The notes below the pieces were generated by a model. It saw only the letters and a list, made by a program, of their open reading frames with translations. It had not been told where the DNA came from and did no database searches. From sequence record PQ433349.1: 64,000 nucleotides of DNA; one strand, written 5' to 3'. The stretch's first letter is position 1, and each line of letters begins with the position of its first letter. This DNA comes from Escherichia phage vB_Ec-G1. The position numbers and the translations under genes were made by a program. This document shows, in pieces, positions 9,109 to 28,448 of the stretch.

Positions 9109-9801
9109 TTAAATAGCGGTTCCTTCGAAATCCGCCACATTTACGAGATTAATATTTTCAGATTTAGAAGTCAAGTTGTTTTCTGCAACAGATTTTTCTT
9201 CAGTATCCGCCTCGTTACCTGCCACGTTACGAGGTTCTTCTTCACCGTAGGGATTACCGAATTTCAAAAGATTGATCAATTCTTCTTTGGAGAAGTTTTC
9301 TAAATCATCGTCTGTTAATTCAATAATCTCATCTTGTTCTTCAACAAATGTTTCACCACCAGAAAAAGCATCTCGCTTTTTAGCTACTTCCATAGCCTGT
9401 TCTGGTGTTGCCCCTGCATCAAGAGCAGCTAAAGCAAAGTCTGACCCGCTTCCTACCGCATAATATTCTTCATCAATCGGATATGCACGTGTTGGGTTGT
9501 TACCTTCGTGCAGGAAAATACGTCCGTCAGGATGAACAACAAGTGCAATAAACTCTTCATCTTCTTTATCTGGATCAGAGTGAATCATCAAACCAGGGAC
9601 AGCATCACGTGCTGCTTCGCACTGTAGATTTTGTTCAAACCATTGAAAGAAAGAAAGCACGGAGGTCAGACGACCAGCACCACCTACAAGGTAATCTCCA
9701 ATTTTTCGGACCTTTTTGAAATTAATAGAATCTACACGTCCACCAAAAGTTACCTTACCGTCACTCAAAATCTTATTTTTGGTTGCAATAATTGTCGTCA
9801 C
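9109..9801 (-). CDS. HslV-like Ntn-hydrolase peptidase with acidic C-terminal extension
   Basis: N-terminus MTTIIA...DG...VTFGG, KKVRK...GGAG and AVGSGSDFALAA align with HslV core; no HslU-like ATPase adjacent. Confidence 0.8.
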   Translation of the reverse strand: MTTIIATKNKILSDGKVTFGGRVDSINFKKVRKIGDYLVGGAGRLTSVLSFFQWFEQNLQCEAARDAVPGLMIHSDPDKEDEEFIALVVHPDGRIFLHEGNNPTRAYPIDEEYYAVGSGSDFALAALDAGATPEQAMEVAKKRDAFSGGETFVEEQDEIIELTDDDLENFSKEELINLLKFGNPYGEEEPRNVAGNEADTEEKSVAENNLTSKSENINLVNVADFEGTAI

Positions 9802-10336: not shown

Positions 10337-11095
10337 TTAAATAAACACTTCAGTAATCAGTTTAGACAAACGTCCACGTTTATTATCGTCCGTTGTCAGT
10401 TCAACGTATCCAATAAAATCTACAATTGGCTCACGAACACCCTCTTCATTTTCTGGATACAAAAGTTCCAAAATTTGATGCAGACCATTGCTACGTTTTT
10501 TAATTGCATATGTCTGGCGAACATCGCCTAATACAATAACATGCGTATTAATACCTGCACGTTCAATAAGAAGTTTAAGTGTTTCTGTTGACATAAGTTG
10601 TGCTTCGTCAATAATGACGATTGTATTATCCAGGGTAGCCCCCAACAAATAGTTAGGAATATTCAATTCGATCTTACCTGATCCAATATCGTTTTCCAAT
10701 TTGTTGGCTGTCATGAATTGCTGGAAAATACGTTTTGTAGATTCATAGTGTGCTGCTAGTTTATCTGTTTTATCCCCAGACAAGAAACCAATCTGGTCAT
10801 CTCCGACTTCAGTAGGGTTCTTAATAAAAAGTAGTTTACGGAAGTCTCCTGAACGAAGCATCTGCAAAGCTTTCCATAAAGCAACAGAGGTTTTACCAGT
10901 CCCTGCCGGAGCATTTACAACAGTCAGATCATTCCAAATCATGCTTTGAACAATCTTATTTTGGTCCCCTTCAGGCATAAATTCATCTAAACGGTAATCG
11001 TCATTACCTACCGCTTTTGCTGCATAACGGCTTTCAATCTTTGCTGAATTAGCCAGTTTCTGCCGTTGTGTTTTAGCTGCGGTTTTATTTCCCAT
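10337..11095 (-). CDS. phoH: PhoH-like ATPase
   Basis: Walker A GTGKT, IIDEAQ Walker B, PhoH-like overall pattern; start refined to ATG 11095 with AAGGAG SD. Confidence 0.9.
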   Translation of the reverse strand: MGNKTAAKTQRQKLANSAKIESRYAAKAVGNDDYRLDEFMPEGDQNKIVQSMIWNDLTVVNAPAGTGKTSVALWKALQMLRSGDFRKLLFIKNPTEVGDDQIGFLSGDKTDKLAAHYESTKRIFQQFMTANKLENDIGSGKIELNIPNYLLGATLDNTIVIIDEAQLMSTETLKLLIERAGINTHVIVLGDVRQTYAIKKRSNGLHQILELLYPENEEGVREPIVDFIGYVELTTDDNKRGRLSKLITEVFI

Positions 11096-11109
11096 AGTAG
11101 CACTCCTTT

Positions 11110-11128
11110 TAGAAGGGGCCGAAGCCCC
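11110..11128 (-). promoter_or_regulatory. intergenic UUCG-tetraloop hairpin between lysozyme and phoH
   Basis: On minus strand AGGGGC-ttcg-GCCCCT, no U-run; sits just upstream of phoH SD. Confidence 0.45.
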
Positions 11129-11132
11129 TTTA

Positions 11133-11633
11133 TTAGTTGTAAGCATCTAAAGTTCCAGAAGTCAGAACTTTAATTACTCGTTCAGCACGGTTTGGCGTCT
11201 GGCTATACCATCGGCTTTTACGCATGTTTTTACCTGCTTGAGTATAATATGCATTGCTGATTAAAGTCAAGCTATTTTGAAACCCTTCAGCACCTTTTAA
11301 CCCCAACTGGAAAACCATGTTGATTATTCCCAATTTACGAGTATCACTAACCTTATCATAGATTGGTGATAAGATAGTACTGTTTTTTATGTCTCTCTTC
11401 ACTTTTGCAACATCGTCAGCAAAGATTTGACGGGCTTCTTTTTCTGTGATAACTCCATTAGTCTTACGACCAAGAAGATTATCTAAGATTTGAATAGCCT
11501 TTGCTTTATCTTTTATTTTAGTCAGAAGGTGTCCTATGCCGACTGTCCAATAACCAAGATGGTCTTGATAAACAGTAAGCTTCAGTCCTTCATCGACTCG
11601 TAGCATATCAAACTCATCTACTACTTTAGCCAT
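11133..11633 (-). CDS. e: T4-type lysozyme (endolysin, muramidase)
   Basis: Strong similarity to T4 gene e lysozyme: MLRVDEGLKL..YTIGIGHLLTK..GVIT..INMVFQ..SRWYSQTPNRA. Confidence 0.9.
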   Translation of the reverse strand: MAKVVDEFDMLRVDEGLKLTVYQDHLGYWTVGIGHLLTKIKDKAKAIQILDNLLGRKTNGVITEKEARQIFADDVAKVKRDIKNSTILSPIYDKVSDTRKLGIINMVFQLGLKGAEGFQNSLTLISNAYYTQAGKNMRKSRWYSQTPNRAERVIKVLTSGTLDAYN

Positions 11634-11795: not shown

Positions 11796-12056
11796 TTACT
11801 CCGCAATTTGAGCCATGAGATCACGCAGTTCGGTAAAACCGCCTACGTATGTTACCTCCCCGTTCACTTCAGACAGAATTTGTGGAAATGTGCGTGGAGG
11901 AACTCCGGTAAGATCAACAACTGTTTTAGTCATTGATTCTAAATCATAGTCTTGGTCAAGACTTAAATATTCAAACTGTTTATTGCGCATAGTCAATAGT
12001 TGTTTTGACATTTCACAAAATTGACAGTTAGGTTTACCAAAAATTACAAATTCCAT
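11796..12056 (-). CDS. glutaredoxin/NrdC-like redoxin
   Basis: CQFC active-site CxxC near N-terminus, GGF near C-terminus; adjacent to RNR genes. Confidence 0.75.
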   Translation of the reverse strand: MEFVIFGKPNCQFCEMSKQLLTMRNKQFEYLSLDQDYDLESMTKTVVDLTGVPPRTFPQILSEVNGEVTYVGGFTELRDLMAQIAE

Positions 12057-12898
12057 TACCTCTCCTTATTAAGTAATACTGCTAAAGACTGTTCAATACC
12101 TTTATTTAAATCTGATTTTGTAAGATAGTGACTGGTTACTAGTTGTGACTTCACCGGACGTGCTGCTGGAGCATTATAGGTTGAAGCTGATACCGCCGAT
12201 ATCTTAACAGGTTCTGGCATCTGTGTCAAGATCTTTTCCGCAAACTCCGCCCAAGAAATAAGATGGCTTCCTGCAAAATGGTAAGTCTTAACAGACCTTG
12301 ACCAACCTGTTTTTAATACTTCAAAAATAGCTTCTGCTAAATCTGGAGCATATGTTGGACAAGAGAACTGATCAGCAACAATAATAAAATCACGTTGTCC
12401 ATCATTATAGCGAGACAACATGGTTTTTAGAAAGTTATTTCCAAATTCGCTATATACCGAGGCTGTTCGAATAATATATGCATTTGGGTTAACTCCTCGC
12501 ACCATTTTTTCACCAAGTTCTTTCGTATACCCATAATTGTTTATTGGGTTAGGTGTAGTATCTTCAAAAATAGGATGAGAATAATTAAAAATATAGTCTG
12601 TGGAAATATGCACAAAATCAATTTTAAGTTTGCTGCACAGTGCCGCAATATTTGCAGGGCCATAAGCATTAACAGCCAAAGCAGTAGCAAAATCTTGTTC
12701 GGCTTTATCTACAGCCGTATAAGCGGCGCAATTAATAACACCATCTACATAATCTTCAATAATAGCGTTTCGCACAGCTTCAAAATTTGTAATATCTACA
12801 CGTTCTTTAGGATAAATTAAAGATACATTTGCAGGGGCAACTTTACGTAAAGCTTGTCCCAGTTGTCCATTACCACCCAATACCAAATATGTTAGCAT
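12056..12898 (-). CDS. rmlD: dTDP-4-dehydrorhamnose reductase
   Basis: STDYIF, YGYTKELGEK, RTASVYS, NF..TML, DQFSCPT motifs matching RfbD/RmlD. Confidence 0.85.
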   Translation of the reverse strand: MLTYLVLGGNGQLGQALRKVAPANVSLIYPKERVDITNFEAVRNAIIEDYVDGVINCAAYTAVDKAEQDFATALAVNAYGPANIAALCSKLKIDFVHISTDYIFNYSHPIFEDTTPNPINNYGYTKELGEKMVRGVNPNAYIIRTASVYSEFGNNFLKTMLSRYNDGQRDFIIVADQFSCPTYAPDLAEAIFEVLKTGWSRSVKTYHFAGSHLISWAEFAEKILTQMPEPVKISAVSASTYNAPAARPVKSQLVTSHYLTKSDLNKGIEQSLAVLLNKER

Positions 12899-13458
12899 AC
12901 ACCCTCGCTACGTAGCTGTTGAAAAGACTTAGCCATTGCATCTTTTGTTGATAAGATAGGTTTAAAATCTTCGTCAAAAATCATATCGAAGCCCCAATCA
13001 ATCCCTATATCAGGATCATCCCAACGTAAACTTTGTTCGCTGGAAGGGTCGTATGGAGTTGTGCATTTGTATTCGAAGATAGCATCCATACTCAACACTA
13101 TAAAACCATGTGCCAAACCAGGTGGAAGCCAGAACTGTGTATGGTGTCGTGCACGAAGAACAACACCGTCCCAAGCACCGTAAGTAGGACTATCTTTACG
13201 TAGGTCTACAGCGAAATCCAATACTTCCCCACTTACACAACGAACAAGCTTACCTTGCGGATTATTTGTTTGAAAGTGCATTCCTCGCAAAACACCGAAG
13301 TTTGATTTAGACATGTTATCTTGAACGAAAGTTTGTCTACCAATGATATCTTCGTATTTTTGTTCATTATATGTTTCTAAAAAGAAACCACGATCATCTT
13401 TATAAACGTCTGGTTTGATAATTACCGCACCTTCAATTTTTGTTTTTTCTACTTTCAT
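12892..13458 (-). CDS. rmlC: dTDP-4-dehydrorhamnose 3,5-epimerase
   Basis: [44 protein letters not shown] motifs; ATGA overlap with rmlA stop. Confidence 0.85.
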
Positions 13459-14333
13459 TTTCTCTCCGCTAATTTGAGCAGGTATTGCCCGTACTCTGTT
13501 TTCTTCAGTGAGTTTCCATGATAGACCAAAGTCTCTAAAGAAATCCACCCTTTTTTGAAAGCAATTTCTTCCAGGCACGCAATCTTCAATCCTTGACAGT
13601 TCTCAATAGTCTGCACGAATTGACCAGCTTCCATCAGACTGGCGTGTGTTCCTGTGTCAAGCCAAGTAAATCCTCGTCCGAGAACTTCTACTTGTAACTT
13701 CCTGTCTTCGAGGTAGCTGCGATTGATATCGGTGATCTCCAGTTCTCCACGCGCGGAAGGGGTTACTTCTAATGCACGTTGAATAACAGAGTTATCATAG
13801 AAATACAAACCTGTGACAGCATAATCTGATTTAGGATTTTCAGGTTTCTCTTCAATAGAAATAGCTTGATGATTACTCCCAAATTCAACCACACCGAATC
13901 GTTCAGGATCTTTCACCAAATACCCGAAGATACAAGCTCCGCCACAAACATCTACCATCTCACTGGCGTTAATCAGTAGTTTACCAAAGCTTTGTCCGAA
14001 GAATAGGTTGTCACCTAAAATAAGAGCAACAGAGTCTTCTCCGATAAAATCTTTACCGATGATGAAAGCGTCCGCAAGACCTCGTGGCTCGGATTGGATT
14101 GCATAAGTGAGTTTTATCCCAAACATAGACCCATCTCCGAGAAGATACTCAAAGTCTTCCTGATCGCCTGGTGTGGTGATGATTAAGATATCCTTAATGT
14201 CAGCCAACATCAATACCGATAAAGGGTAGTAGATCATGGGTTTGTCATACACAGGGAGCAATTGCTTGCTCACACTGCGTGTTACCGGATGAAGGCGGGT
14301 TCCACTTCCTCCCGCCAAAATAATACCTTTCAT
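13455..14333 (-). CDS. rmlA: glucose-1-phosphate thymidylyltransferase
   Basis: [40 protein letters not shown] pattern; start at ATG 14333 with AAGGAGG SD. Confidence 0.9.
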
Positions 14334-14341
14334 AGCCCTCC

Positions 14342-15334
14342 TTAAATCTTCCCACTCCACCATTGAGGGTTGTTTAAGTACCATTCAATCGTTGAGTAGA
14401 GATCTTGTTCAAATGTAGAGTTTGCACTCCAACCCAGTTCAGACTCTATCTTAGAAGGATTGATTTCATAACGCAAGTCATGTCCTTTACGATCTTCAAC
14501 AAAAGTTATCAAGTTGGAAGAAGGGTAGGTTCCTGCTTCTGGATGTACAGCATCCATGTAGTCACAAACCATATAGATGATCTCCATATTGGTTTTGGGA
14601 TTACGTGTTCCCACATTATACGTTTGACCTGGTTCTCCACCTGTTGCCACTTGAAGAATAGCTCGCGCATGATCCTCAACAAAAAGCCAGTCTCGCACCT
14701 GATCGCCTTTACCATACACCGGAATCTCTTTATTCGTCAAGATACTTGTGATGATTTTTGGGATCAGCTTTTCTGGATGTTGATAAGGTCCAAAGTTATT
14801 GGAGCAGTTGGTTATCACAACAGGTAAACCGTAGGTACGGTACCAAGCTTTCACAAGATGGTCAGATGCTGCCTTAGACGCACTGTACGGGCTTGAAGGG
14901 GCATAAGCTGTCTCTTCGGTAAAGGGAACGCCAGAGTCTGCCATATCGCCGTACACTTCGTCTGTGGAGACGTGTACGAACATCTTCAGTTTATTTTTTG
15001 GGAGGAGCCTTGCAGCTTCCAATAAATTGTATGTGCCAATAATATTGGAGTCGATGAAAACTCGTGGATTCTTGATAGAATTATCCACATGACTCTCTGC
15101 CGCTAAGTGAATGATGAAATCGGGATTGCACTCTACTACTAAACTTTTGACCTGGGTTTCGTTTGCCAAATCTGTTATGCTTAGTTTAACGTGAGTGATA
15201 TCGCCTACATTCTCAATATCTGCTGCATAGCCCATCTTATCAACGACAAAAACTTCGTTATTGGGATCTTGACAAAGAGAGCGCACCACGGCACTCCCAA
15301 TAAAACCAAGACCACCTGTTACCAGATAGCGCAT
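14342..15334 (-). CDS. rmlB: dTDP-glucose 4,6-dehydratase
   Basis: [10 protein letters not shown] Rossmann motif, YSASKAASD catalytic Yxxx[18 protein letters not shown]. Confidence 0.9.
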
Positions 15335-15966: not shown

Positions 15967-16175
15967 TATTCCTCCTTAATTATTTCAAATTTGGCAACAC
16001 CATTTACAATAATATGACCACAAGACATAACTCCTAGCCAAGGATCGCCGTTTTTCTTCAGGCGTTTACCGAATACATCACAAAAACCATTCTTCATTTC
16101 AGAGGCTTCATAAGAAGCCCCTTTATCAAAAACGTCTTTGAATGTGTCGATTATACCAACACATTTCAAAATCAT
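15966..16175 (-). CDS. hypothetical protein (69 aa)
   Basis: Small minus ORF. Confidence 0.45.
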   Translation of the reverse strand: MILKCVGIIDTFKDVFDKGASYEASEMKNGFCDVFGKRLKKNGDPWLGVMSCGHIIVNGVAKFEIIKEE

Positions 16176-17260
16176 TCGAAGTCAAGCTCCTCATCATCAG
16201 AGAGATCTTTGTTAGCTGAATTCAATTTGTAGTTAGTTAACTGAATCTCTTGGGCTGCTGACTGAATCAAATCAGGATTCAACCATTTTTCCATCCAAGC
16301 TAAAGGGCTATGTTTAGGTGCTTTAAACTTGGCTTTCATTTTCAATCGACGATAAATAGGAGCAGCATTGAAATAAACCCACTGTTTAGACAATTCGGCG
16401 TTAAGACCTACAATAAAACGACCTTCACTAAACAGGTAGTCACACCACTGTTCCTCTTGTTCAACAACAGTGTCGAGGATCAAAGTCAACTCTTCAGTAT
16501 TGTCTTCGTAAATTTTACGCCAAATTGGGTCATGCATCAATGCATCAATTACAGCATAATCCATCTTAACATGCAAGATTTCATCTAGCATAATTTTCTG
16601 GATCAGTTTACAAGCCCCAACAAACAGTTGTTGTTCTGCCATAGCAAAAGTAGCAGAGAAGGAAGATATAAACTGAATACCTTCTAATCCAATCAGGGCT
16701 ACCATCCCTTTAAGAATCAGCAGTCGAAGTTCATCGTTAGCTTCAATCAATCCTAGAGCATACTTATGACCAGCTTCTTCCAACTGACCCATGATATCAG
16801 CAATGATACCCATACGATTGAAAATTTTATCATTAATCATAATCTGATTGATGACTTCGATTGGATCTGGAGTACATTGACGGATTATTTCAGAATACGT
16901 TAACGCATGGAGAACTTCCATTTCACTCTGCTTCATCATCATAGCACAGGCTTCATTGTTACTCAAGAATGGAGAGAACAAAGTGATGATTGATTTTGCA
17001 AGAGAATCATTTTCCCATTGGAACGATAAGTTTTTAATCATAACATCATAGTTGTTTTTAGAACAAGCTACGAAATCTTTACGTGTCTGATCCAAGTTAA
17101 CTTCGTTTTCATCCCAATCTTGTGCTTTTTGAAGTTTGTAGAGTTTGTGCATTTCTGGATAAGTTACGTTAACAGAATCAAAGATCCCTAATTGCTCCCC
17201 CAAAAATACTGGATATTTTCCTGTTTTGTAAACTTCATTGTGTAAATTAATTGCTGCCAT
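16172..17260 (-). CDS. nrdB: ribonucleotide reductase class I small subunit
   Basis: Di-iron/tyrosyl radical motifs (E..H..Y region MEVLHALTYSEII; EGIQFISSF..ILDEILH). Confidence 0.9.
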   Translation of the reverse strand: MAAINLHNEVYKTGKYPVFLGEQLGIFDSVNVTYPEMHKLYKLQKAQDWDENEVNLDQTRKDFVACSKNNYDVMIKNLSFQWENDSLAKSIITLFSPFLSNNEACAMMMKQSEMEVLHALTYSEIIRQCTPDPIEVINQIMINDKIFNRMGIIADIMGQLEEAGHKYALGLIEANDELRLLILKGMVALIGLEGIQFISSFSATFAMAEQQLFVGACKLIQKIMLDEILHVKMDYAVIDALMHDPIWRKIYEDNTEELTLILDTVVEQEEQWCDYLFSEGRFIVGLNAELSKQWVYFNAAPIYRRLKMKAKFKAPKHSPLAWMEKWLNPDLIQSAAQEIQLTNYKLNSANKDLSDDEELDFE

Positions 17261-17626: not shown

Positions 17627-18283
17627 TTAGCCTCGGAATACTGTTTTTGTTTCTGCCAGATTGTAATAGAAATCCGACTTGTTTACAAGTGTTTTGTAAA
17701 CATCCTTACAAAAATGATCTTCCTGTTTGTAACGTTCCGCTGTTTCCCTGATTGACTTAGCTTTATCCTTTAGCCAAGCGAAGTGTGCCTCTTCCTCTGT
17801 AGCGAAGTAGCCTAAATGCTTACCTTTACTCCCAGAAGCTTTGGCATAAATCTTACCATCTTTCCTAACATGTGCTCCTAGTAAGTATTTTCTTTCATAC
17901 CTCTTAGCATAACTTAAGAGTGTATTTATGTAAGGAGGAACAAACCTACAATATTCAGGACAATAAACAGTATTTCCTTCAAGAACAAGATCTTTATCTA
18001 AAACAAAGCCTTCCACATTGTGTTCTTGATACCAGTTATCAAAGTTTGAAAAGGTGAACCAAGCATCACACACAGTAACATCTTTATAACCTGGTCTAAT
18101 GTTTTCCATACGATATGCACGATTAAACATGCCTTTCCAAGCTGCATAGGAAGGGTCTATGAATGTATTAACCCTTTTCCCATTGATAACACCACCTTCC
18201 CACAATCTACGTTCAACATCCACAATCAAGGGGATTTCTCCCCTCTCTGTGAGAACGGTAACTTTACGTTTACCCTTCTTCAT
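17627..18283 (-). CDS. HNH-family homing endonuclease with AP2-like DNA-binding domain
   Basis: AP2-like GYFATEEEAHFAW segment; basic N-terminus; free-standing between nrdA and nrdB. Confidence 0.7.
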   Translation of the reverse strand: MKKGKRKVTVLTERGEIPLIVDVERRLWEGGVINGKRVNTFIDPSYAAWKGMFNRAYRMENIRPGYKDVTVCDAWFTFSNFDNWYQEHNVEGFVLDKDLVLEGNTVYCPEYCRFVPPYINTLLSYAKRYERKYLLGAHVRKDGKIYAKASGSKGKHLGYFATEEEAHFAWLKDKAKSIRETAERYKQEDHFCKDVYKTLVNKSDFYYNLAETKTVFRG

Positions 18284-18294
18284 CTGTTCTCCTA

Positions 18295-20538
18295 CTACAT
18301 TTTACAGGCACTACACCCTTCGTCTTCAGAATCTTCTTGTGCTAAAGAATCTGCTGATTTCGTTCTACTGTTAAGATAATACAACGACTTGCCACCCAAT
18401 CTAGCAAAATTCAGAATAAACTGCATCTCGGCTTTCACTGATAAACGTCCACCTACCAATTTAGAATAATCTAGCCAAGAATCACAAGAAATTCCTTGGT
18501 CTGTAAACTTGGTAAAGATACCATACATTTCTGCAAGATCTTTAGCCGGAGTATCCCAGGCGGATTGGTAGAACATTTTCAGTTTTTCGTAGTCTGGAAC
18601 AATAAATAATACACTACCTTTCTGACTTTGTTTATACATAATAGTATCACGAACAGGGTACAGAGAGTTAGTAGTATTGCTTACCAAACTGCTGGACTCA
18701 TTAGGTGCAATAGCAGCCAAGACACTATTACGGATACCACCTTGTTCAATGATTTCAGCACGTAAACCTTCCCAGTCCATTTTAAGATCAAAGTTACCGA
18801 CACTATCTACTGCTTTAGCATAGGTGTCAATCGGTAGCCAACCTTGAGGCCATTTGGTCTTATCGATCCATTCCGCATTACCTTTTTCCTTAGCCAGACG
18901 CAGAGAGGCTTTTGCCAACCAAAAGTAATGACGTTCTGCAAGTTCATGCATTAATTTTTTAGCATAAGCATCTGAATAATTTACAAAATTACTTGCCAAG
19001 TAATGCGCTAAGTTTGTAATACCTACACCAATAGATCTACGTGCTTTAGCAGTTATTTCGTTATGTTTAAATGGATAATCCATTGTTTCAATAACGTTGT
19101 CAATTGTCAATACAGTGTAGTATGCAACATCCTCATATTCTTCAGGTAAGACACGACCAGCAACAATAGAAGATAAGAAGCATAAAGCCAATTCTTGATC
19201 TTCTGTATTCTCACCAGTAAAGAGATCCGGCATACTGTGGAAAGCTTTAGTTGGTAAGAAGATCTCTTGACACAGGTTTGATTGATACACCGTATCCAGG
19301 AAAGGTGTATGGTTGTTAACGTTGTCAGCAAAGAACATGTAAATACGTCCTGTTTCTGCACGTTGAACAATAATCTCTGTCAGAAGATCACGAGCCTTAA
19401 CAAATTTTTTCTTAATGCGACGACGGCTTACTTTGTCATAAACTGCATCAAACTCTTCTTCACTTTTATACAAAGCTTCATAAAGTTCAGGAGCATCATC
19501 ACAACTAACTAACATCCAATCTTCGTTTTTTGCTGCTCGACGCAAGAACGAACGGTTAACAACAATAGAATAATCTAGTTTATCCACTCGTTTATCTATA
19601 GGTGTTGTTGGATTCTTCAGTCGAATCAGATCGTCGAAGTCTGGTTCAAGTATGGTAAAGGTAACTGTAGCACTACCTCCACGGCTTGCTTGCTTTGAAG
19701 CTCCAACACTATCTTCCATCCATTTCAGATACGGAAGAAGACCACCGTGAATAATACGATTATTCTTAACACCTTGACCTGTGGCACGAGTTTGAAGATT
19801 AACACCAATACCTGCGTTATTCAACGTATACTCATGAGCTAAGTAATTAGCAATGGCTAAAGACTCTGCCGTATCGTCTGCACGGAATAAACAACAAGAC
19901 GCACTTCCTTTGATTGGAGTTCGTAGAGTTGTCAGATATGGCGATGGCAGATTAATCTTAAGATCGCTAACATAAGTATAAAGTTTTTTAATATCTTCTA
20001 TACGGCGTTCTTTTGGTTGGATCTCCATAACCTTCATTGCGATACCAATGAAAAGAAACTGTGGAGACTCATGCACCACATCGTTTACTGCATCTCGAAT
20101 AAGATATTTATCTACCATCTGACGTAAAACAGAATAACCATAAGTTAGATTTTTATTATGCTTTACAATCTTACCGATTTCTTTGATCTCTTCATCAGTA
20201 TAATCCATTTTAGCCCAATGTCCACGTTCTACCATATCATGATAAAAGGTATTCAGTGAAGGGATACTGTGGTATCCCCCATGAGCCTGTTTGTAAATCA
20301 TACCAAGAAGAAGTCTTCCTGCCATATCACTGTAAGCTTGTGTTTTCTTGTCAATACACGCTGCAATCATTGCTTTATGCAGATCACGTGTAGACACACC
20401 GTCATAACACCGCTTCACAGCTTCTAATTCAATTTCAGACCAGTTTAGTTTACCTGCTGCAAATTCAGACCACTTACGAAGTTTTTCTGGATTAAACTCC
20501 TCTGTCTTACCATTAGATTTAGTTACAAAACGAATCAA
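18295..20538 (-). CDS. nrdA: ribonucleotide reductase class I large subunit
   Basis: 747 aa; N-terminal ATP-cone-like region, catalytic NLCQEI and PNESSS regions, C-terminal Cys tail. Confidence 0.92.
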   Translation of the reverse strand: MIRFVTKSNGKTEEFNPEKLRKWSEFAAGKLNWSEIELEAVKRCYDGVSTRDLHKAMIAACIDKKTQAYSDMAGRLLLGMIYKQAHGGYHSIPSLNTFYHDMVERGHWAKMDYTDEEIKEIGKIVKHNKNLTYGYSVLRQMVDKYLIRDAVNDVVHESPQFLFIGIAMKVMEIQPKERRIEDIKKLYTYVSDLKINLPSPYLTTLRTPIKGSASCCLFRADDTAESLAIANYLAHEYTLNNAGIGVNLQTRATGQGVKNNRIIHGGLLPYLKWMEDSVGASKQASRGGSATVTFTILEPDFDDLIRLKNPTTPIDKRVDKLDYSIVVNRSFLRRAAKNEDWMLVSCDDAPELYEALYKSEEEFDAVYDKVSRRRIKKKFVKARDLLTEIIVQRAETGRIYMFFADNVNNHTPFLDTVYQSNLCQEIFLPTKAFHSMPDLFTGENTEDQELALCFLSSIVAGRVLPEEYEDVAYYTVLTIDNVIETMDYPFKHNEITAKARRSIGVGITNLAHYLASNFVNYSDAYAKKLMHELAERHYFWLAKASLRLAKEKGNAEWIDKTKWPQGWLPIDTYAKAVDSVGNFDLKMDWEGLRAEIIEQGGIRNSVLAAIAPNESSSLVSNTTNSLYPVRDTIMYKQSQKGSVLFIVPDYEKLKMFYQSAWDTPAKDLAEMYGIFTKFTDQGISCDSWLDYSKLVGGRLSVKAEMQFILNFARLGGKSLYYLNSRTKSADSLAQEDSEDEGCSACKM

Positions 20539-20554: not shown

Positions 20555-20809
20555 TTAATGCATATTCAAAACATCTACATCATAACCGAACTTCATTTCA
20601 TTAAAAAGTCCATTAGCATATAGAAAACCTTCAAAATGAGTTATGTCATCAAACCCTTTTGCTTTTGCTCGACGGTCTGCTTCTTGTCTTTTAGGAGATA
20701 AACGTTTTGAAGTGTCTAGAATTACAGTTACATTACAACCAACAGTTTCATCAAAATAGACTTCGATTTCACAGCCTTCATATTTATTATCAGTCATTGT
20801 CCCTCTCAT
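20555..20809 (-). CDS. hypothetical protein (84 aa)
   Basis: Minus ORF. Confidence 0.45.
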   Translation of the reverse strand: MRGTMTDNKYEGCEIEVYFDETVGCNVTVILDTSKRLSPKRQEADRRAKAKGFDDITHFEGFLYANGLFNEMKFGYDVDVLNMH

Positions 20810-21249
20810 TGATTAGCATCATCTGCTTTCGCAGGATCATAAGAGTTACCGAAATCATCCATCTTAATATGTGACGCACCCCAACCTGTAAATTCTTCAT
20901 CACCAAAATGAAAAATATCATTTTCTTGATAGATTCGTTTAAAACCACAATTAGGTGAAACAGGGAAAGTGAAAAGCGTTGTATTTGCAAACACTACTCG
21001 CTTATCGTTATTGCTTCTGATATTCACATTACGCTCAACAGAATAGTGTGAATCTTCAGCCATACCCAGCATTACAAGCGACGCTCTAATAACAGCATTT
21101 TGTTTCTCGTGTGGGATATTGCCATTGTGTTTATTTGATTCTAGTTTCCAGATAGGGGTAGACATTACAGTAGACATGCTTACGGTAGCCCAAGTTGTAG
21201 TATTTACTAATGACATATTTTCTCCTTCATTTTGAATGGGAGGACTCAC
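20806..21249 (-). CDS. hypothetical protein (start possibly internal at 21216)
   Basis: Minus ORF; AT-rich promoter-like region upstream. Confidence 0.45.
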   Translation of the reverse strand: MSPPIQNEGENMSLVNTTTWATVSMSTVMSTPIWKLESNKHNGNIPHEKQNAVIRASLVMLGMAEDSHYSVERNVNIRSNNDKRVVFANTTLFTFPVSPNCGFKRIYQENDIFHFGDEEFTGWGASHIKMDDFGNSYDPAKADDANQ

Positions 21250-21314
21250 CTCCTCCCAGTATTGTGCTATATTATACTAAAACTAATACTAAAGTCAATA
21301 ACTATTTAAACAGA

Positions 21315-22313
21315 TCACCATTTAGTATGATTTGTTAAAAGTTGACGATGTTGAATCCAGCCTTTGAAATTGCCAGACCAAAACTTACCATTACGATCTA
21401 CATGGGTAATACCTGGTTCCCAAGAGTTAAAATCCCAAGGAGCATTGATAAACAAATCTTCAAAACAGTTCTCTCCATATTGTTCGCATGTTTCTTGCAT
21501 TGGAGTGGCTTGATGTTCAAACGGAGAAGCATGAACCTTGCGCCCAGTCAGCAAGCGACCATAGATATCTAAAGCTTTATCTTTAGTTGCATTTAAACGA
21601 CGATAGCTAACCTGTGCACAACACGACGCTGAAATAGCTTTGGCTTCTTCCAAAGTAAGCACAACGACTTCTCCAGATTCATCTTGAACGTAGTATCCAC
21701 CAAAAACAAAATGATCGTCACCTTCTGTGCCAATAGTATCATAGAAATGGTCTACATAAGGTGTGTGCCATTGCCCTGGTTTCAGCACTTCTGGTGTAGA
21801 TCCTTCATACTCTTTGTGCATCTCTTTAGCCAAAGCTTCGATAGTAGGATCGGCTTCTTTGTCATCACGTAGCCACCAGAAATTTTCATATTCTGTTGCT
21901 GTCAGAACTGTTTTAATTCGTTGGAAAGGTTCCAGAAGACGGTTTGCAACTTGTTTGTGGTACCCTGCCAAAGAGAATTCTTCTGCAAAACGGGCTGCAC
22001 TAAGCGCGGCAAGATCCCACCACTCTTGAGCAGTATAACCTGCATCAATAAAAGCATCATGGTCAACACCTTTATCCTGCATACCAGGTTGGTTAGCCCC
22101 AAAACGATAAGGACGAGCAGGTTGATTTCGCACCATTTCAATCAGTGTTTTAACAGGTATAGCACGGCTAGAAGCAGCATTACGACTGAACAGGCGGTGA
22201 GTCATCAATTCTGAATGAATAATACGTGGATATTCTAGTTCAAAAGTTACAATCTCTTTTCCGTCTTCAGTGATGGAATGCGCAATAATACTAGCCGAAA
22301 TCTGTTTTGTCAT
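21315..22313 (-). CDS. ThyX-like protein (flavin-dependent thymidylate synthase family), divergent
   Basis: N-terminal THRLFSRNAASSR matches ThyX RHR-x7-S-x-R motif with first Arg replaced; C-terminal HASPFEH and WIQHR resemble ThyX His/RHR motifs. Confidence 0.6.
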   Translation of the reverse strand: MTKQISASIIAHSITEDGKEIVTFELEYPRIIHSELMTHRLFSRNAASSRAIPVKTLIEMVRNQPARPYRFGANQPGMQDKGVDHDAFIDAGYTAQEWWDLAALSAARFAEEFSLAGYHKQVANRLLEPFQRIKTVLTATEYENFWWLRDDKEADPTIEALAKEMHKEYEGSTPEVLKPGQWHTPYVDHFYDTIGTEGDDHFVFGGYYVQDESGEVVVLTLEEAKAISASCCAQVSYRRLNATKDKALDIYGRLLTGRKVHASPFEHQATPMQETCEQYGENCFEDLFINAPWDFNSWEPGITHVDRNGKFWSGNFKGWIQHRQLLTNHTKW

Positions 22314-22322
22314 TTTTTCTCC

Positions 22323-22931
22323 TTAGTTTTTAAAATTGTTCAAAGTGTTAAAAACATCCAAACATGTTAGCCACTGATCTTCTAAACCTGTGATCACAAC
22401 ATTTGGTTTTTTCTTTAGTTCTTCTAGATGGTTATCTTTATAAGGCGTATTAAAATATATTTTAACCACTTCATCTGGAAAATATAGTAGGTTATCAGCC
22501 CTGTCATCTATTGCTATATCACAAGGCAATAAGTATTTTTCTTTCGTAGCAAAAAAGCCGTTACCAGATCCTTTGCTAAAATCAATCGTGTTCAATGTTC
22601 TTAAAACATGTTTATGTTTAGAACTCAAGTGACCACCTTTTGTCACACTTGCGATCAAAAGATTGCCACCTTTCCTTGAAACATACTTTAAGAAATCTGG
22701 CATACCTGGAACAAAACCCATTGTATCATAGAGATGAGGATTATCCAGAAATCCGTAAGGATCTATATTGAACTCCTCCCTGAAACCAGGAAAGTAGTTG
22801 GTAAGATCATAGTCTGCATTTTTTGTGAATGTGTCTATCTTAACACCAAGTCCACTAATCTTATTCAACCATTCTAACCAAGCAACATCTAATGGAGCCA
22901 CAACTAAATCCCAATCACATACTATCTGCAT
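22323..22931 (-). CDS. HAD-superfamily 5'(3')-deoxyribonucleotidase-like protein
   Basis: N-terminal CDWDLVVAP (DxDxV HAD motif I-like). Confidence 0.6.
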   Translation of the reverse strand: MQIVCDWDLVVAPLDVAWLEWLNKISGLGVKIDTFTKNADYDLTNYFPGFREEFNIDPYGFLDNPHLYDTMGFVPGMPDFLKYVSRKGGNLLIASVTKGGHLSSKHKHVLRTLNTIDFSKGSGNGFFATKEKYLLPCDIAIDDRADNLLYFPDEVVKIYFNTPYKDNHLEELKKKPNVVITGLEDQWLTCLDVFNTLNNFKN

Positions 22932-22967: not shown

Positions 22968-23543
22968 CTAACTTTCAATTTCCTGCAATAGGATTTTGAC
23001 TATTTGTTTACGGCGTTTTGCTACTGTGCTTTCAGGTTCTATTTTACGCTTCTTCAGCCACGCTTTATCTTTCTTAGCTTTACACAAAGCTATCGCTTCT
23101 TTTTCAGCTTTTGCTTCTTCAAAAGATATGCCTTGCTTGTCTGCATAAGCAAGAATAGAGTTGCACAATTTACAAACCATTCGCAAATCTTCTTCTTTCA
23201 CATAGATCAAACGGAAAACAAAAAGGGGAATATCCTCAAAACATTGAAGTTGTTTTGCTGCGTGAATATGATCCACTTGGAAGTCTTTCATTCCTCCTTT
23301 GTGTCCACATATTTCGCACTCACAATTCCAAACTTGTTTTGGTTTTCCAGTTTTCTTGTCTATCATTACATTGCCGTCTTTATCTACGCGATCAACTTTA
23401 AAACGCCTTGCATTGATAACCTTAATTTTATTAGGGTGTCTCATCCATGCTTTTCTAAAGCATCCCCTAAGATAAGTATAAAATTCAGCTTGTGTTTTCC
23501 AGGGTGTTCCTTCACCCCACATTATTTTTGGTTCACCTGCCAA
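22968..23543 (-). CDS. hypothetical zinc-binding protein, possible HNH-type nuclease
   Basis: CECEICGH...DHIH Cys/His cluster; basic C-terminus. Confidence 0.4.
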   Translation of the reverse strand: MAGEPKIMWGEGTPWKTQAEFYTYLRGCFRKAWMRHPNKIKVINARRFKVDRVDKDGNVMIDKKTGKPKQVWNCECEICGHKGGMKDFQVDHIHAAKQLQCFEDIPLFVFRLIYVKEEDLRMVCKLCNSILAYADKQGISFEEAKAEKEAIALCKAKKDKAWLKKRKIEPESTVAKRRKQIVKILLQEIES

Positions 23544-27722: not shown

Positions 27723-28448
27723 TTACTTGTTAATAATATCTGCAATATTAGGTTTGACAAAGGTCGATGGTTTCATGATCTTACCTTTATCATCAAAGAA
27801 CACATACACTTTCTGTTTTTCATTATAAACAGCATGAACACCAGTGTATGCCCCTTCTGGACGATTGGCATTTCGTTCTTCAATTGCAGCGCATTCTTGT
27901 GCAATGGCTGAATCGATATCCGAAGTTTTCCAAGTTTTCAGCAACTGTTGTTTAGTTGGATACTTGGAATCATTACTTTTCAATACCTCTTTAATAACTT
28001 TCTTTTCTGGATATTTTGAACGGATTAGAGTGTCACGAGACATACGCATAATACCAGCAGCCATTAGTGCCATTTGAACTGGCTCTGTAAATGTTTGTTC
28101 CAAAGCATCGAAATCGGTATACACAGTTGGAGTAAAAACATCGCCTACAGCATAGTCCAAGAAATTCATCGTATGTTCTTCACCAAAAAACATGTAAGTC
28201 AGATAACTGGATACTACAAAAATATCCGCTGCTGCATCCAAGAGTTCTACATGATCGTTTACTTTCGCGGCTGTTTCATACTCTTTAAGCTCTTCACGAA
28301 CGAACCCGATTTGGGACATAAATAGCTCTTGAGTGAATTCAGGTTGTTCACCACCTCGTGCTTTGGCATTCCAATCAATTACGTGCTTTGCTGCATTTTT
28401 GAAAAATTCAGTATCGAATTTAATATCTTTAAAAAAATTCTCGATCAT
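27723..28448 (-). CDS. MazG-like all-alpha NTP pyrophosphohydrolase
   Basis: EELKEYE...ELLDAAAD acidic helix motif characteristic of MazG/dCTPase-like enzymes. Confidence 0.5.
   Translation of the reverse strand: MIENFFKDIKFDTEFFKNAAKHVIDWNAKARGGEQPEFTQELFMSQIGFVREELKEYETAAKVNDHVELLDAAADIFVVSSYLTYMFFGEEHTMNFLDYAVGDVFTPTVYTDFDALEQTFTEPVQMALMAAGIMRMSRDTLIRSKYPEKKVIKEVLKSNDSKYPTKQQLLKTWKTSDIDSAIAQECAAIEERNANRPEGAYTGVHAVYNEKQKVYVFFDDKGKIMKPSTFVKPNIADIINK

Follow-up and report, generated by a model that had tools for sequence, protein, structure and literature searches.

A large phage clade of rearranged ThyX-like proteins with an altered flavin-pocket signature, represented by a gene of Escherichia phage vB_Ec-G1

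The genome of Escherichia phage vB_Ec-G1 (record PQ433349.1) was analysed over a stretch of 64,000 nucleotides, referred to here as the window, with coordinates counted from its first letter. On the minus strand of the window, an open reading frame (ORF) of 332 amino acids probably encodes a flavin-dependent thymidylate synthase (ThyX, also abbreviated FDTS) that belongs to a large and apparently phage-restricted clade. Members of this clade carry a characteristic segment of the enzyme behind the catalytic core instead of in front of it, and are predicted from their sequences to be working synthases of deoxythymidine monophosphate (dTMP) with a rebuilt flavin pocket. The gene and its immediate upstream neighbour are laid out as follows.

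21315..22313, minus strand: ThyX-like protein of the rearranged phage clade, homologous to flavin-dependent thymidylate synthase (332-amino-acid ORF).
22319..22324, minus strand: AAGGAG, putative ribosome-binding site of the ThyX-like gene, read from the sequence and overlapping the stop codon of the nucleotidase-like gene.
22323..22931, minus strand: 5'(3')-deoxyribonucleotidase-like (NT5C-like) protein of the HAD superfamily (202-amino-acid ORF).

The window derives from a Phapecoctavirus, i.e. a phAPEC8-like E. coli myovirus of the Stephanstirmvirinae, and sequenced phages exist that are about 99% identical to it. Over the 3.1 kb that surround the ThyX-like gene, identity to many Phapecoctavirus Escherichia phages, such as WPEC1 and nieznany, is 99%. 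In the matching GenBank records the 332-amino-acid ORF is labelled 'FAD-dependent thymidylate synthase', 'thymidylate synthase ThyX' or 'hypothetical protein', and its identity as a thymidylate synthase is therefore already present in databases. Literature searches on ThyX circular permutation, on ThyX of phAPEC8 or Phapecoctavirus and on the ICP1 thymidylate synthase returned routine annotations only, and no description of the rearranged topology or of the systematic loss of hallmark residues was found in the searched literature.

An initial annotation, made from the sequence alone, had regarded the protein as a divergent ThyX homologue about 100 amino acids longer than usual, and both points held. 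T. maritima ThyX has 220 amino acids and the other solved ThyX chains have 216-270, compared with 332 in the phage protein. The Pfam model Thy1 (PF02511) is matched with 33.5 bits, above its gathering cutoff of 24.8, over residues 22-174 only, which correspond to model positions 59-190 of 191, and the best PHROG assignment is phrog_85 'thymidylate synthase' (1e-108). Searches of PDB sequences with the protein, and then with a shallow family profile, retrieved no ThyX, which identifies the protein as a remote relative. An AlphaFold2 model built with 35 homologues reached a predicted local distance difference test score (pLDDT) of 82.5 and a predicted template-modelling score (pTM) of 0.83. The 50 PDB matches listed by Foldseek for this model consist entirely of ThyX/FDTS structures and the ThyX homologue PolB (E ~2e-5), and as modelled the protein would adopt the ThyX fold. 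The Foldseek alignments are mostly only about 155 columns long, and sequential superposition of the model on ThyX gives a TM-score of about 0.5. PolB (PDB 4p5a), a UMP/dUMP C5-methylase of polyoxin biosynthesis, is colinear with T. maritima ThyX (Tm 6-208 to 4p5a 9-234, E 3.7e-34), whereas the phage protein is not; PolB is encoded in an antibiotic biosynthesis cluster, in contrast to the phage gene, which lies in a cluster for the supply of deoxynucleoside triphosphates (dNTPs).

The order of the segments was determined by aligning a canonical ThyX profile (120 sequences) with a phage-family profile (155 sequences) by hhalign, using a T. maritima ThyX sequence checked against PDB 1kq4. Two separate, non-colinear matches were obtained: phage residues 15-191 align to Tm 55-210 (probability 89%, E 2.3e-6), and phage residues 224-278 align to Tm 18-70 (probability 85%, E 6.1e-6). 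The segment that opens canonical ThyX, consisting of helices alpha1-alpha2 and the G-H-x-[ST]-P-x-E-H loop, accordingly follows the core in the phage protein, and the canonical order of N-terminal helices with HxSPxEH followed by the RHR core is reversed. The protein is thus composed of the following parts.

21741..22271, minus strand: catalytic core, residues 15-191, equivalent to T. maritima ThyX 55-210 (first hhalign match).
22164..22202, minus strand: altered signature T-H-R-x7-S-S-R, residues 38-50, read from the sequence (canonical R-H-R-x7-S-x-R).
21645..21740, minus strand: clade-specific beta-rich connector, residues 192-223, without a match in the canonical ThyX profile.
21513..21644, minus strand: relocated helix-helix-HxSPxEH segment, residues 224-267, equivalent to Tm 18-59 (second hhalign match and de-permutation).
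21318..21512, minus strand: clade-specific C-terminal tail, residues 268-332, with conserved GITH, WSGN and GW-x-Q-x-RQ motifs.

Restoring the canonical order in silico, by moving either residues 200-267 or residues 221-267 to a position ahead of residue 20, raised the Thy1 score to 50.8 or 50.5 bits, a gain of about 20 bits, and extended the match to model positions 14-190. Controls in which the core stood by itself, or in which the moved segment was shuffled (three versions), reversed or exchanged for the C-terminal tail, remained at 28.9-30.8 bits. In the AlphaFold2 model, the strand 20-29 and helix 30-37 correspond to beta3-alpha3 of ThyX, and the helices 221-236 and 241-255, placed after the core helices, correspond to alpha1-alpha2. 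The rearranged segment order, at which the initial annotation had hinted, is therefore genuine and not a reading artefact; it may represent either a strict circular permutation or the transposition of a single segment.

The connector (residues 192-223) has no counterpart in the canonical ThyX profile and is modelled with strands at 188-194, 201-210 and 216-219. Just before it, still within the core, lies the invariant stretch WHTPYV (182-187), with H183 and P185 present in 100% of the sequences. Two motifs near the C-terminus had been proposed to derive from ThyX, and both are present, as H261-A-S-P-F-E-H267 and W319-I-Q-H322-R323. The former is the displaced ThyX motif. The latter has no detectable homology to the W-F-R-H-R region of ThyX and is clade-specific, like the tail in which it lies, where N315 (96%), Q321 (97%) and R323 (100%) are strongly conserved among the 155 sequences. 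Past the PFEH motif, the tail 268-332 showed homology neither to canonical ThyX nor to the N-terminus of the protein itself. The idea that it is a vestigial second RHR helix, or the remnant of a tandem repeat, found no support in these homology tests and was dropped.

Active-site residues were assigned by hhalign against T. maritima ThyX, their conservation was scored in 155 family members, and their roles were taken from the literature (PMC6514825) and from mutants named in PDB titles (H53, S88, R90, R174 and Y91). The signature reads T38-H39-R40-LFSRNAA-S48-S49-R50, in which the histidine, the second arginine, the serine and the last arginine of R-H-R-x7-S-x-R are retained and the first arginine is not. 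The core residues R30, H39, R40, S48, R50, R125, N144 and R149 are 85-100% conserved. In detail, the T. maritima (Tm), H. pylori (Hp) and M. tuberculosis (Mtb) residues correspond to the phage residues as follows.

Kept, in the relocated segment: Tm H53 as H261 (100%), T55 as S263 (98%), E58 as E266 (97%) and H59 as H267 (99%).
Kept, in the first half of the signature: Tm H79 as H39 (~100%), R80 as R40 (85%) and N85 as N45 (96%).
Kept, in the remaining signature and the core: Tm S88 as S48 (99%), R90 as R50 (100%) and R147 as R125 (100%).
Kept, towards the end of the core: Tm N169 as N144 (100%) and R174 as R149 (100%).
Kept by spacing only: R30 (94%), which precedes T38 by eight residues; Hp R66 and Mtb R87 precede the first R of RHR by the same distance.
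Replaced: Tm R78, the first R of RHR, by T38 (96%, 149 of 155; R in two members, R or K in four).
Replaced: Tm R165 (equivalent to Hp R165 and Mtb R190) by T140 (98%).
Replaced: the Tm Y91 lid by A51 (153 of 155; alignment gaps in the remaining two).
Replaced: Tm E86 by A or S46.
Clade-specific and near-invariant: R/K44, G77-M78, K120, H183, P185, S236, R238, N315, Q321 and R323.

The substitution of the first RHR arginine, which the initial annotation had recognised, is thus a property of the whole family, and alignment to the ThyX profile gave threonine at this position as well as the non-canonical motif order. In canonical enzymes this arginine forms hydrogen bonds with the flavin ring and dUMP (deoxyuridine monophosphate), the Tm R165 equivalent contacts the phosphates of flavin adenine dinucleotide (FAD), the tyrosine lid covers C5/N5, and the equivalent of R149 reads uracil O4 (PMC6514825). 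The dUMP-binding residues are retained in the phage protein, with S48, R50, R125 and R149 assigned by hhalign and R30 by spacing. Among the FAD contacts, H39, R40 and S263 are kept, and the first arginine, R165 and Y91 are replaced by T38, T140 and A51. These correspondences predict a pocket that is intact where substrate and folate bind and remodelled on the flavin side.

Compared with the canonical enzymes TM0449 of T. maritima, those of M. tuberculosis and H. pylori, and A674R of PBCV-1 (PF02511, TIGR02170), the phage protein shares the equivalents of H53, S88, R90, R147, N169, R174, H79 and R80, and its gene keeps the same genomic company of ribonucleotide reductase (RNR) and dCTP/dCMP deaminase. 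It differs in the N-terminal helical HxSPxEH segment, which has moved behind the core, in the exchange of RHR for THR, of Tm R165 for threonine and of the Y91 lid for alanine, and in about 110 extra residues, including the conserved C-terminal tail without a ThyX counterpart.

A word-indexed search recovered 6916 relatives of the ThyX-like protein, and an exhaustive search yielded 4985 clusters at 50% identity with E <= 1e-3, and 1594 with E <= 1e-30; the clusters have diverged to roughly 40% identity. Among the 150 best cluster representatives, x-H-x-x7-S-x-R is present in 142, nearly always near the N-terminus, and 106 retain a complete H-x-[ST]-P-x-[EQ]-H around residue 250, those lacking a motif being mostly truncated or interrupted by an intein. 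Members with RHR or KHR are few (P0194, P0240, P0151 and P0199) and may represent branches that split off early. By tblastn, the rearranged clade was found in 1034 phage records, including Vequintavirus (rV5), Phapecoctavirus, Vibrio phage ICP1, Pseudomonas Pakpunavirus, N4-like Schitoviridae, whose member has been called 'N4 gp30-like' (PMC2784036), and phages of Caulobacter, Flavobacterium and others. Canonical ThyX was found in 2682 phage records which, among the matches listed, mostly represent other host genera and phage types.

A scan of 185,579 bacterial and archaeal species genomes with two exact peptide patterns, which covers close relatives in isolate genomes rather than distant ones, detected 10 loci only, all on contigs of 7-130 kb from metagenome-assembled genomes (MAGs). 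In two of three inspected loci the match is surrounded by phage replication and RNR genes. The third (L013, NYTP01000134.1) has host-like genes on one side; by the appearance of their sequences, one of these ORFs is membrane sensor-like and one signalling-like. L013 and a further locus, L014 (PBMI01000045.1), show near-identical match statistics (42% identity, query 1-330, E 3e-72) although their MAGs are assigned to different phyla, as Bermanella and Opitutia; a prophage or mobile element would account for this, or else a chimera that arose in binning or assembly. While canonical ThyX is widespread in cells, the rearranged clade is apparently confined to phages.

Family members of 520-680 amino acids carry inteins of the HNH or LAGLIDADG type, and members of 630-650 amino acids, which had been considered as tandem duplications or enzyme fusions, proved to be such intein-containing forms. 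Inteins were located in 17 members (P0128, P0136, P0144, P0145, P0156, P0173, P0189, P0201, P0210, P0217, P0219, P0221, P0225, P0234, P0248, P0261 and P0263), at five sites: after H33, after R40 (between T-H-R and C), at the S48/S49 junction, beside R149 and after H261. All five lie inside the predicted active-site motifs. Inteins are typically found at the most strongly conserved catalytic positions of working enzymes, so that their positions independently mark these motifs as the active site. Liu and Yang (2004) reportedly described inteins in active-site motifs of canonical ThyX; the sites mapped here belong to the rearranged clade, and the gene in the window is itself free of an intein.

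The initial annotation had also placed a HAD deoxyribonucleotidase next to the ThyX-like gene, and the 202-amino-acid protein is indeed deoxyribonucleotidase-like. Its Pfam NT5C score of 25.2 bits is barely above the cutoff of 24.8. The D-x-D-x-[TV] nucleophile motif is present, and the aspartates of D6-x-D8 and of D142-D143 are invariant. A sequence search of PDB returned nothing. The AlphaFold2 model (pLDDT 88) shows a predicted HAD core with an NT5C-type cap and is matched best by the deoxyribonucleotidase-like structure 3bwv (TM 0.69/0.81) and by human mdN and cdN (TM ~0.66), with E values 100-1000 times better than those of other HAD phosphatases. With cdN/mdN and 3bwv it would share the HAD fold and cap (TM 0.65-0.81) as well as the D-x-D and D-D motifs, but only 14-18% identity, and the assignment as HAD deoxyribonucleotidase-like appears justified at the level of the fold. 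The TAA stop codon of its gene overlaps the AAGGAG, six nucleotides before the ATG of the ThyX-like gene. Because of this overlap the two genes are considered tightly coupled on one message, and they are apparently co-transcribed, as judged from the sequence.

Further genes of nucleotide metabolism lie nearby in the window.

18295..20538, minus strand: class Ia ribonucleotide reductase large subunit, NrdA-like, 0.8 kb downstream of the ThyX-like gene (ORF, and annotation of the 99%-identical nieznany).
16172..17260, minus strand: ribonucleotide reductase small subunit, NrdB-like (Pfam Ribonuc_red_sm, 114.8 bits).
27723..28448, minus strand: MazG-like, all-alpha nucleotide pyrophosphohydrolase, 5.4 kb upstream (Pfam PRA-PH 28.2 bits, phrog_671 1e-28).

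The order in Phapecoctavirus is HNH endonuclease, NT5C-like gene, ThyX-like gene, two small ORFs, NrdA, HNH endonuclease and NrdB. In rV5, a kinase-like ORF, with what looks like a P-loop-like N-terminus, and an NT5C-like homologue (E 1.6e-25) precede the ThyX-like gene and NrdA/B; PaoP5 has a '3'-phosphatase', the ThyX-like gene and NrdB/A; in ICP1 the ThyX-like gene lies a few kb from NrdA, and RNR is also found near the gene on MAG contigs. An N4-like phage carries a dCTP deaminase 1.5 kb upstream of the ThyX-like gene, and in N4-like roseophages the gene is paired with a dCMP deaminase (PMC2784036). These conserved neighbours, i.e. RNR, dCTP deaminase and nucleotidase genes, represent a dNTP-supply context. 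Two other elements of the context drawn by the initial annotation fared less well. The MazG-like gene matches PRA-PH and phrog_671, with nothing retrieved by a sequence search of PDB, but has no specific link to the ThyX-like gene. The methyltransferase-like genes are 13-20 kb away and not specifically linked; they bear this label only in the annotation of a relative, and their counterparts in the window, placed by coordinate mapping and ORF length rather than alignment, have no Pfam match.

In nieznany (145 kb), the annotation of the first 126 kb contains no ThyA, canonical ThyX, dihydrofolate reductase (DHFR), dUTPase or dCMP deaminase; the last 19 kb are assumed to be structural, since tail and baseplate genes stand at the end of the annotated part. 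FDTS chemistry regenerates tetrahydrofolate rather than dihydrofolate, and the lack of an annotated DHFR fits a flavin-dependent enzyme for this reason.

A complete dTDP-L-rhamnose pathway is encoded at 12056..15334 on the minus strand, each gene being matched by Pfam with 223-269 bits.

12056..12898, minus strand: RmlD-like (Pfam).
12892..13578, minus strand: RmlC-like (Pfam).
13455..14384, minus strand: RmlA-like (Pfam).
14342..15334, minus strand: RmlB-like (Pfam).

This pathway consumes dTTP and thereby adds to the thymidylate demand. In nieznany, four consecutive glycosyltransferase genes are annotated beside the primase/helicase.

Taken as a dTMP synthase, the protein would convert dUMP, methylene-tetrahydrofolate and reduced flavin into dTMP. 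R30, S48, R50, R125 and R149 would bind the phosphate and uracil of dUMP, and H261, N144, H39 and S263 would flank folate and flavin, while R/K44, K120, H183, R238, Q321 and R323 presumably replace the lost flavin-pocket roles. From the coupling to the deoxyribonucleotidase-like gene and the adjacent RNR genes we infer a role in dTMP supply, which would serve an A+T-rich genome (38.7% G+C in the window) independently of host ThyA and DHFR, and the dTMP may also feed the dTDP-rhamnose pathway of the phage. Several points weigh against this assignment. The NCBIfam thyX equivalog TIGR02170 is matched with only 30.9 bits, compared with a cutoff of 87.9; hallmark residues, namely the first RHR arginine, Tm R165 and the tyrosine lid, are gone throughout the clade; the three-dimensional positions of the relocated segment and of the putative compensating residues are predicted from sequence; and no biochemical or genetic test of any clade member turned up in the literature searches.

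Since GenBank records simply name the protein thymidylate synthase or ThyX, it might be an ordinary canonical enzyme whose unusual order is a misreading. This is refuted by the coverage of the family models, since the Pfam and TIGRFAM matches are confined to the C-terminal two thirds of each model and to the N-terminal half of the protein, by the two non-colinear profile matches and by the de-permutation gain that is missing in the controls. Together with the frequencies of T38 (96%) and A51 (100%) in the clade, and with PDB searches by protein or family profile that retrieve no ThyX, these observations leave the misreading next to no probability. A catalytically dead or non-enzymatic relic of ThyX, e.g. 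a nucleotide- or flavin-binding regulator kept after duplication and truncation, would agree with the loss of several canonical FAD contacts, the rearranged order and the weak match to Thy1 and TIGR02170. It is very improbable, as the remaining catalytic and substrate residues are 96-100% conserved across ~5000 clusters at roughly 40% identity and inteins target exactly the active-site motifs. Moreover, no other candidate for a thymidylate synthase is annotated in the Phapecoctavirus relative examined, and the gene recurs in several other phage lineages with their own RNR.

The initial annotation had favoured a pyrimidine-modifying enzyme over a plain thymidylate synthase. A ThyX paralogue with new chemistry or substrate could generate a C5-modified pyrimidine nucleotide, such as 5-hydroxymethyl-dUMP, or methylate a nucleotide other than dUMP, as PolB does with UMP. 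The clade-wide loss of the three hallmark residues, the many clade-specific invariant residues and the extra tail, and the score far below the equivalog cutoff speak for such a paralogue, as do the dTDP-rhamnose pathway and the four annotated glycosyltransferases of nieznany; loss of the tyrosine lid would let water reach the exocyclic methylene. The Vequintavirinae and their relatives, with the phAPEC8 group named among them, were nevertheless described as 'exceptionally susceptible' to restriction-modification systems and seemingly without effective protection (BASEL study, PMC8594841), and rV5 DNA is cut by XbaI (PMC3606486). Known thymidine and pyrimidine hypermodification starts from hydroxymethylases of the ThyA family, not from ThyX (PMC8989533). 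Literature searches found no report of a ThyX-type enzyme in a hypermodification pathway and no nucleoside analysis of virion DNA from the Vequintavirinae and their relatives, and neither restriction-resistant DNA nor a non-canonical pyrimidine emerged from this literature. To our knowledge, no unusual base is known for rV5, ICP1 or N4, which are the best-studied phages carrying the clade. In the annotated 126 kb of nieznany, no ThyA-family hydroxymethylase with kinase and transferase genes is labelled, a dedicated profile search for them not having been made. The same THR clade occurs in 1034 phages of unrelated lineages, most of which lack rhamnose or glycosyltransferase genes, the dUMP- and folate-side residues are invariant, with R149, the uracil O4 reader of canonical enzymes, at 100% pointing to a uracil substrate, and the conserved neighbours are dNTP-supply genes rather than the kinase and transferase genes of known hypermodification pathways. 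Restriction sensitivity, the ThyA-based origin of known pathways and the invariant R149 disfavour the idea, so that a new chemistry or substrate is unlikely and a base-modifying role is not supported. We also think it quite unlikely that the clade uses a different flavin binding mode, another cofactor or another C5 product, e.g. 5-hydroxymethyl-dUMP, which would arise if water attacked the exocyclic methylene; if true, such a product could feed the rhamnose and glycosyltransferase genes of Phapecoctavirus. Given the restriction sensitivity and the RNR neighbourhood, a plain dTMP synthase is the best reading of the gene.

Other features of the window include the following.

22968..23543, minus strand: free-standing HNH endonuclease (phrog_1985), just upstream of the nucleotidase/ThyX pair.
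17627..18283, minus strand: 218-amino-acid ORF between nrdA and nrdB, with the position and length of the annotated HNH endonuclease gene of nieznany.
9109..9801, minus strand: HslV/proteasome-like peptidase (weak Pfam Proteasome match of 25.6 bits; 'peptidase HslV family' in nieznany).
10337..11146, minus strand: PhoH-like ATPase (Pfam, 126.5 bits).

The HNH and putative HNH genes that flank the nucleotide-metabolism genes look like homing-endonuclease traffic. The annotation of nieznany divides the anaerobic ribonucleotide reductase NrdD into three coding sequences (gp166, gp167 and gp169; L002 46229..50000 and L007 1..770) with small ORFs between them, which suggests a split gene or one interrupted by introns or homing elements. 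Upstream of the rhamnose genes lie the HslV-like and PhoH-like genes. A near-consensus sigma-70-like promoter (TTGACT, 16 nucleotides, TATAAT; 11 of 12 matches) is present at 21271..21298 on the minus strand, directly after the stop codon of the ThyX-like gene and before a 147-amino-acid ORF (20806..21249); the region contains 13 promoter-like sites compared with 10.0 expected from shuffling, i.e. no excess. All genes of the window up to ~36 kb are on the minus strand. The GC skew is negative in 1-36000 and mostly positive beyond, and this change of sign coincides with the switch of the coding strand and marks a boundary of divergent transcription.

ThyX is a drug target and a textbook case of flavin-mediated methyl transfer. 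Among the features treated as hallmarks of its mechanism are the RHR arginine and the tyrosine lid. Thousands of phage enzymes that lack both hallmarks and have a reordered sequence constitute a natural experiment on which residues are needed. The clade occurs in model and therapeutic phages, including ICP1, rV5, phAPEC8, PAK_P1-like and N4-like phages, and it explains the low scores of these genes on curated ThyX models. Evolutionary surveys have used the motif RHRx7S as a filter (PMC2826268), and filters of this type can under-represent a large viral branch of ThyX. For the phage itself, the predicted function of this enzyme implies that it very probably makes its own dTMP.

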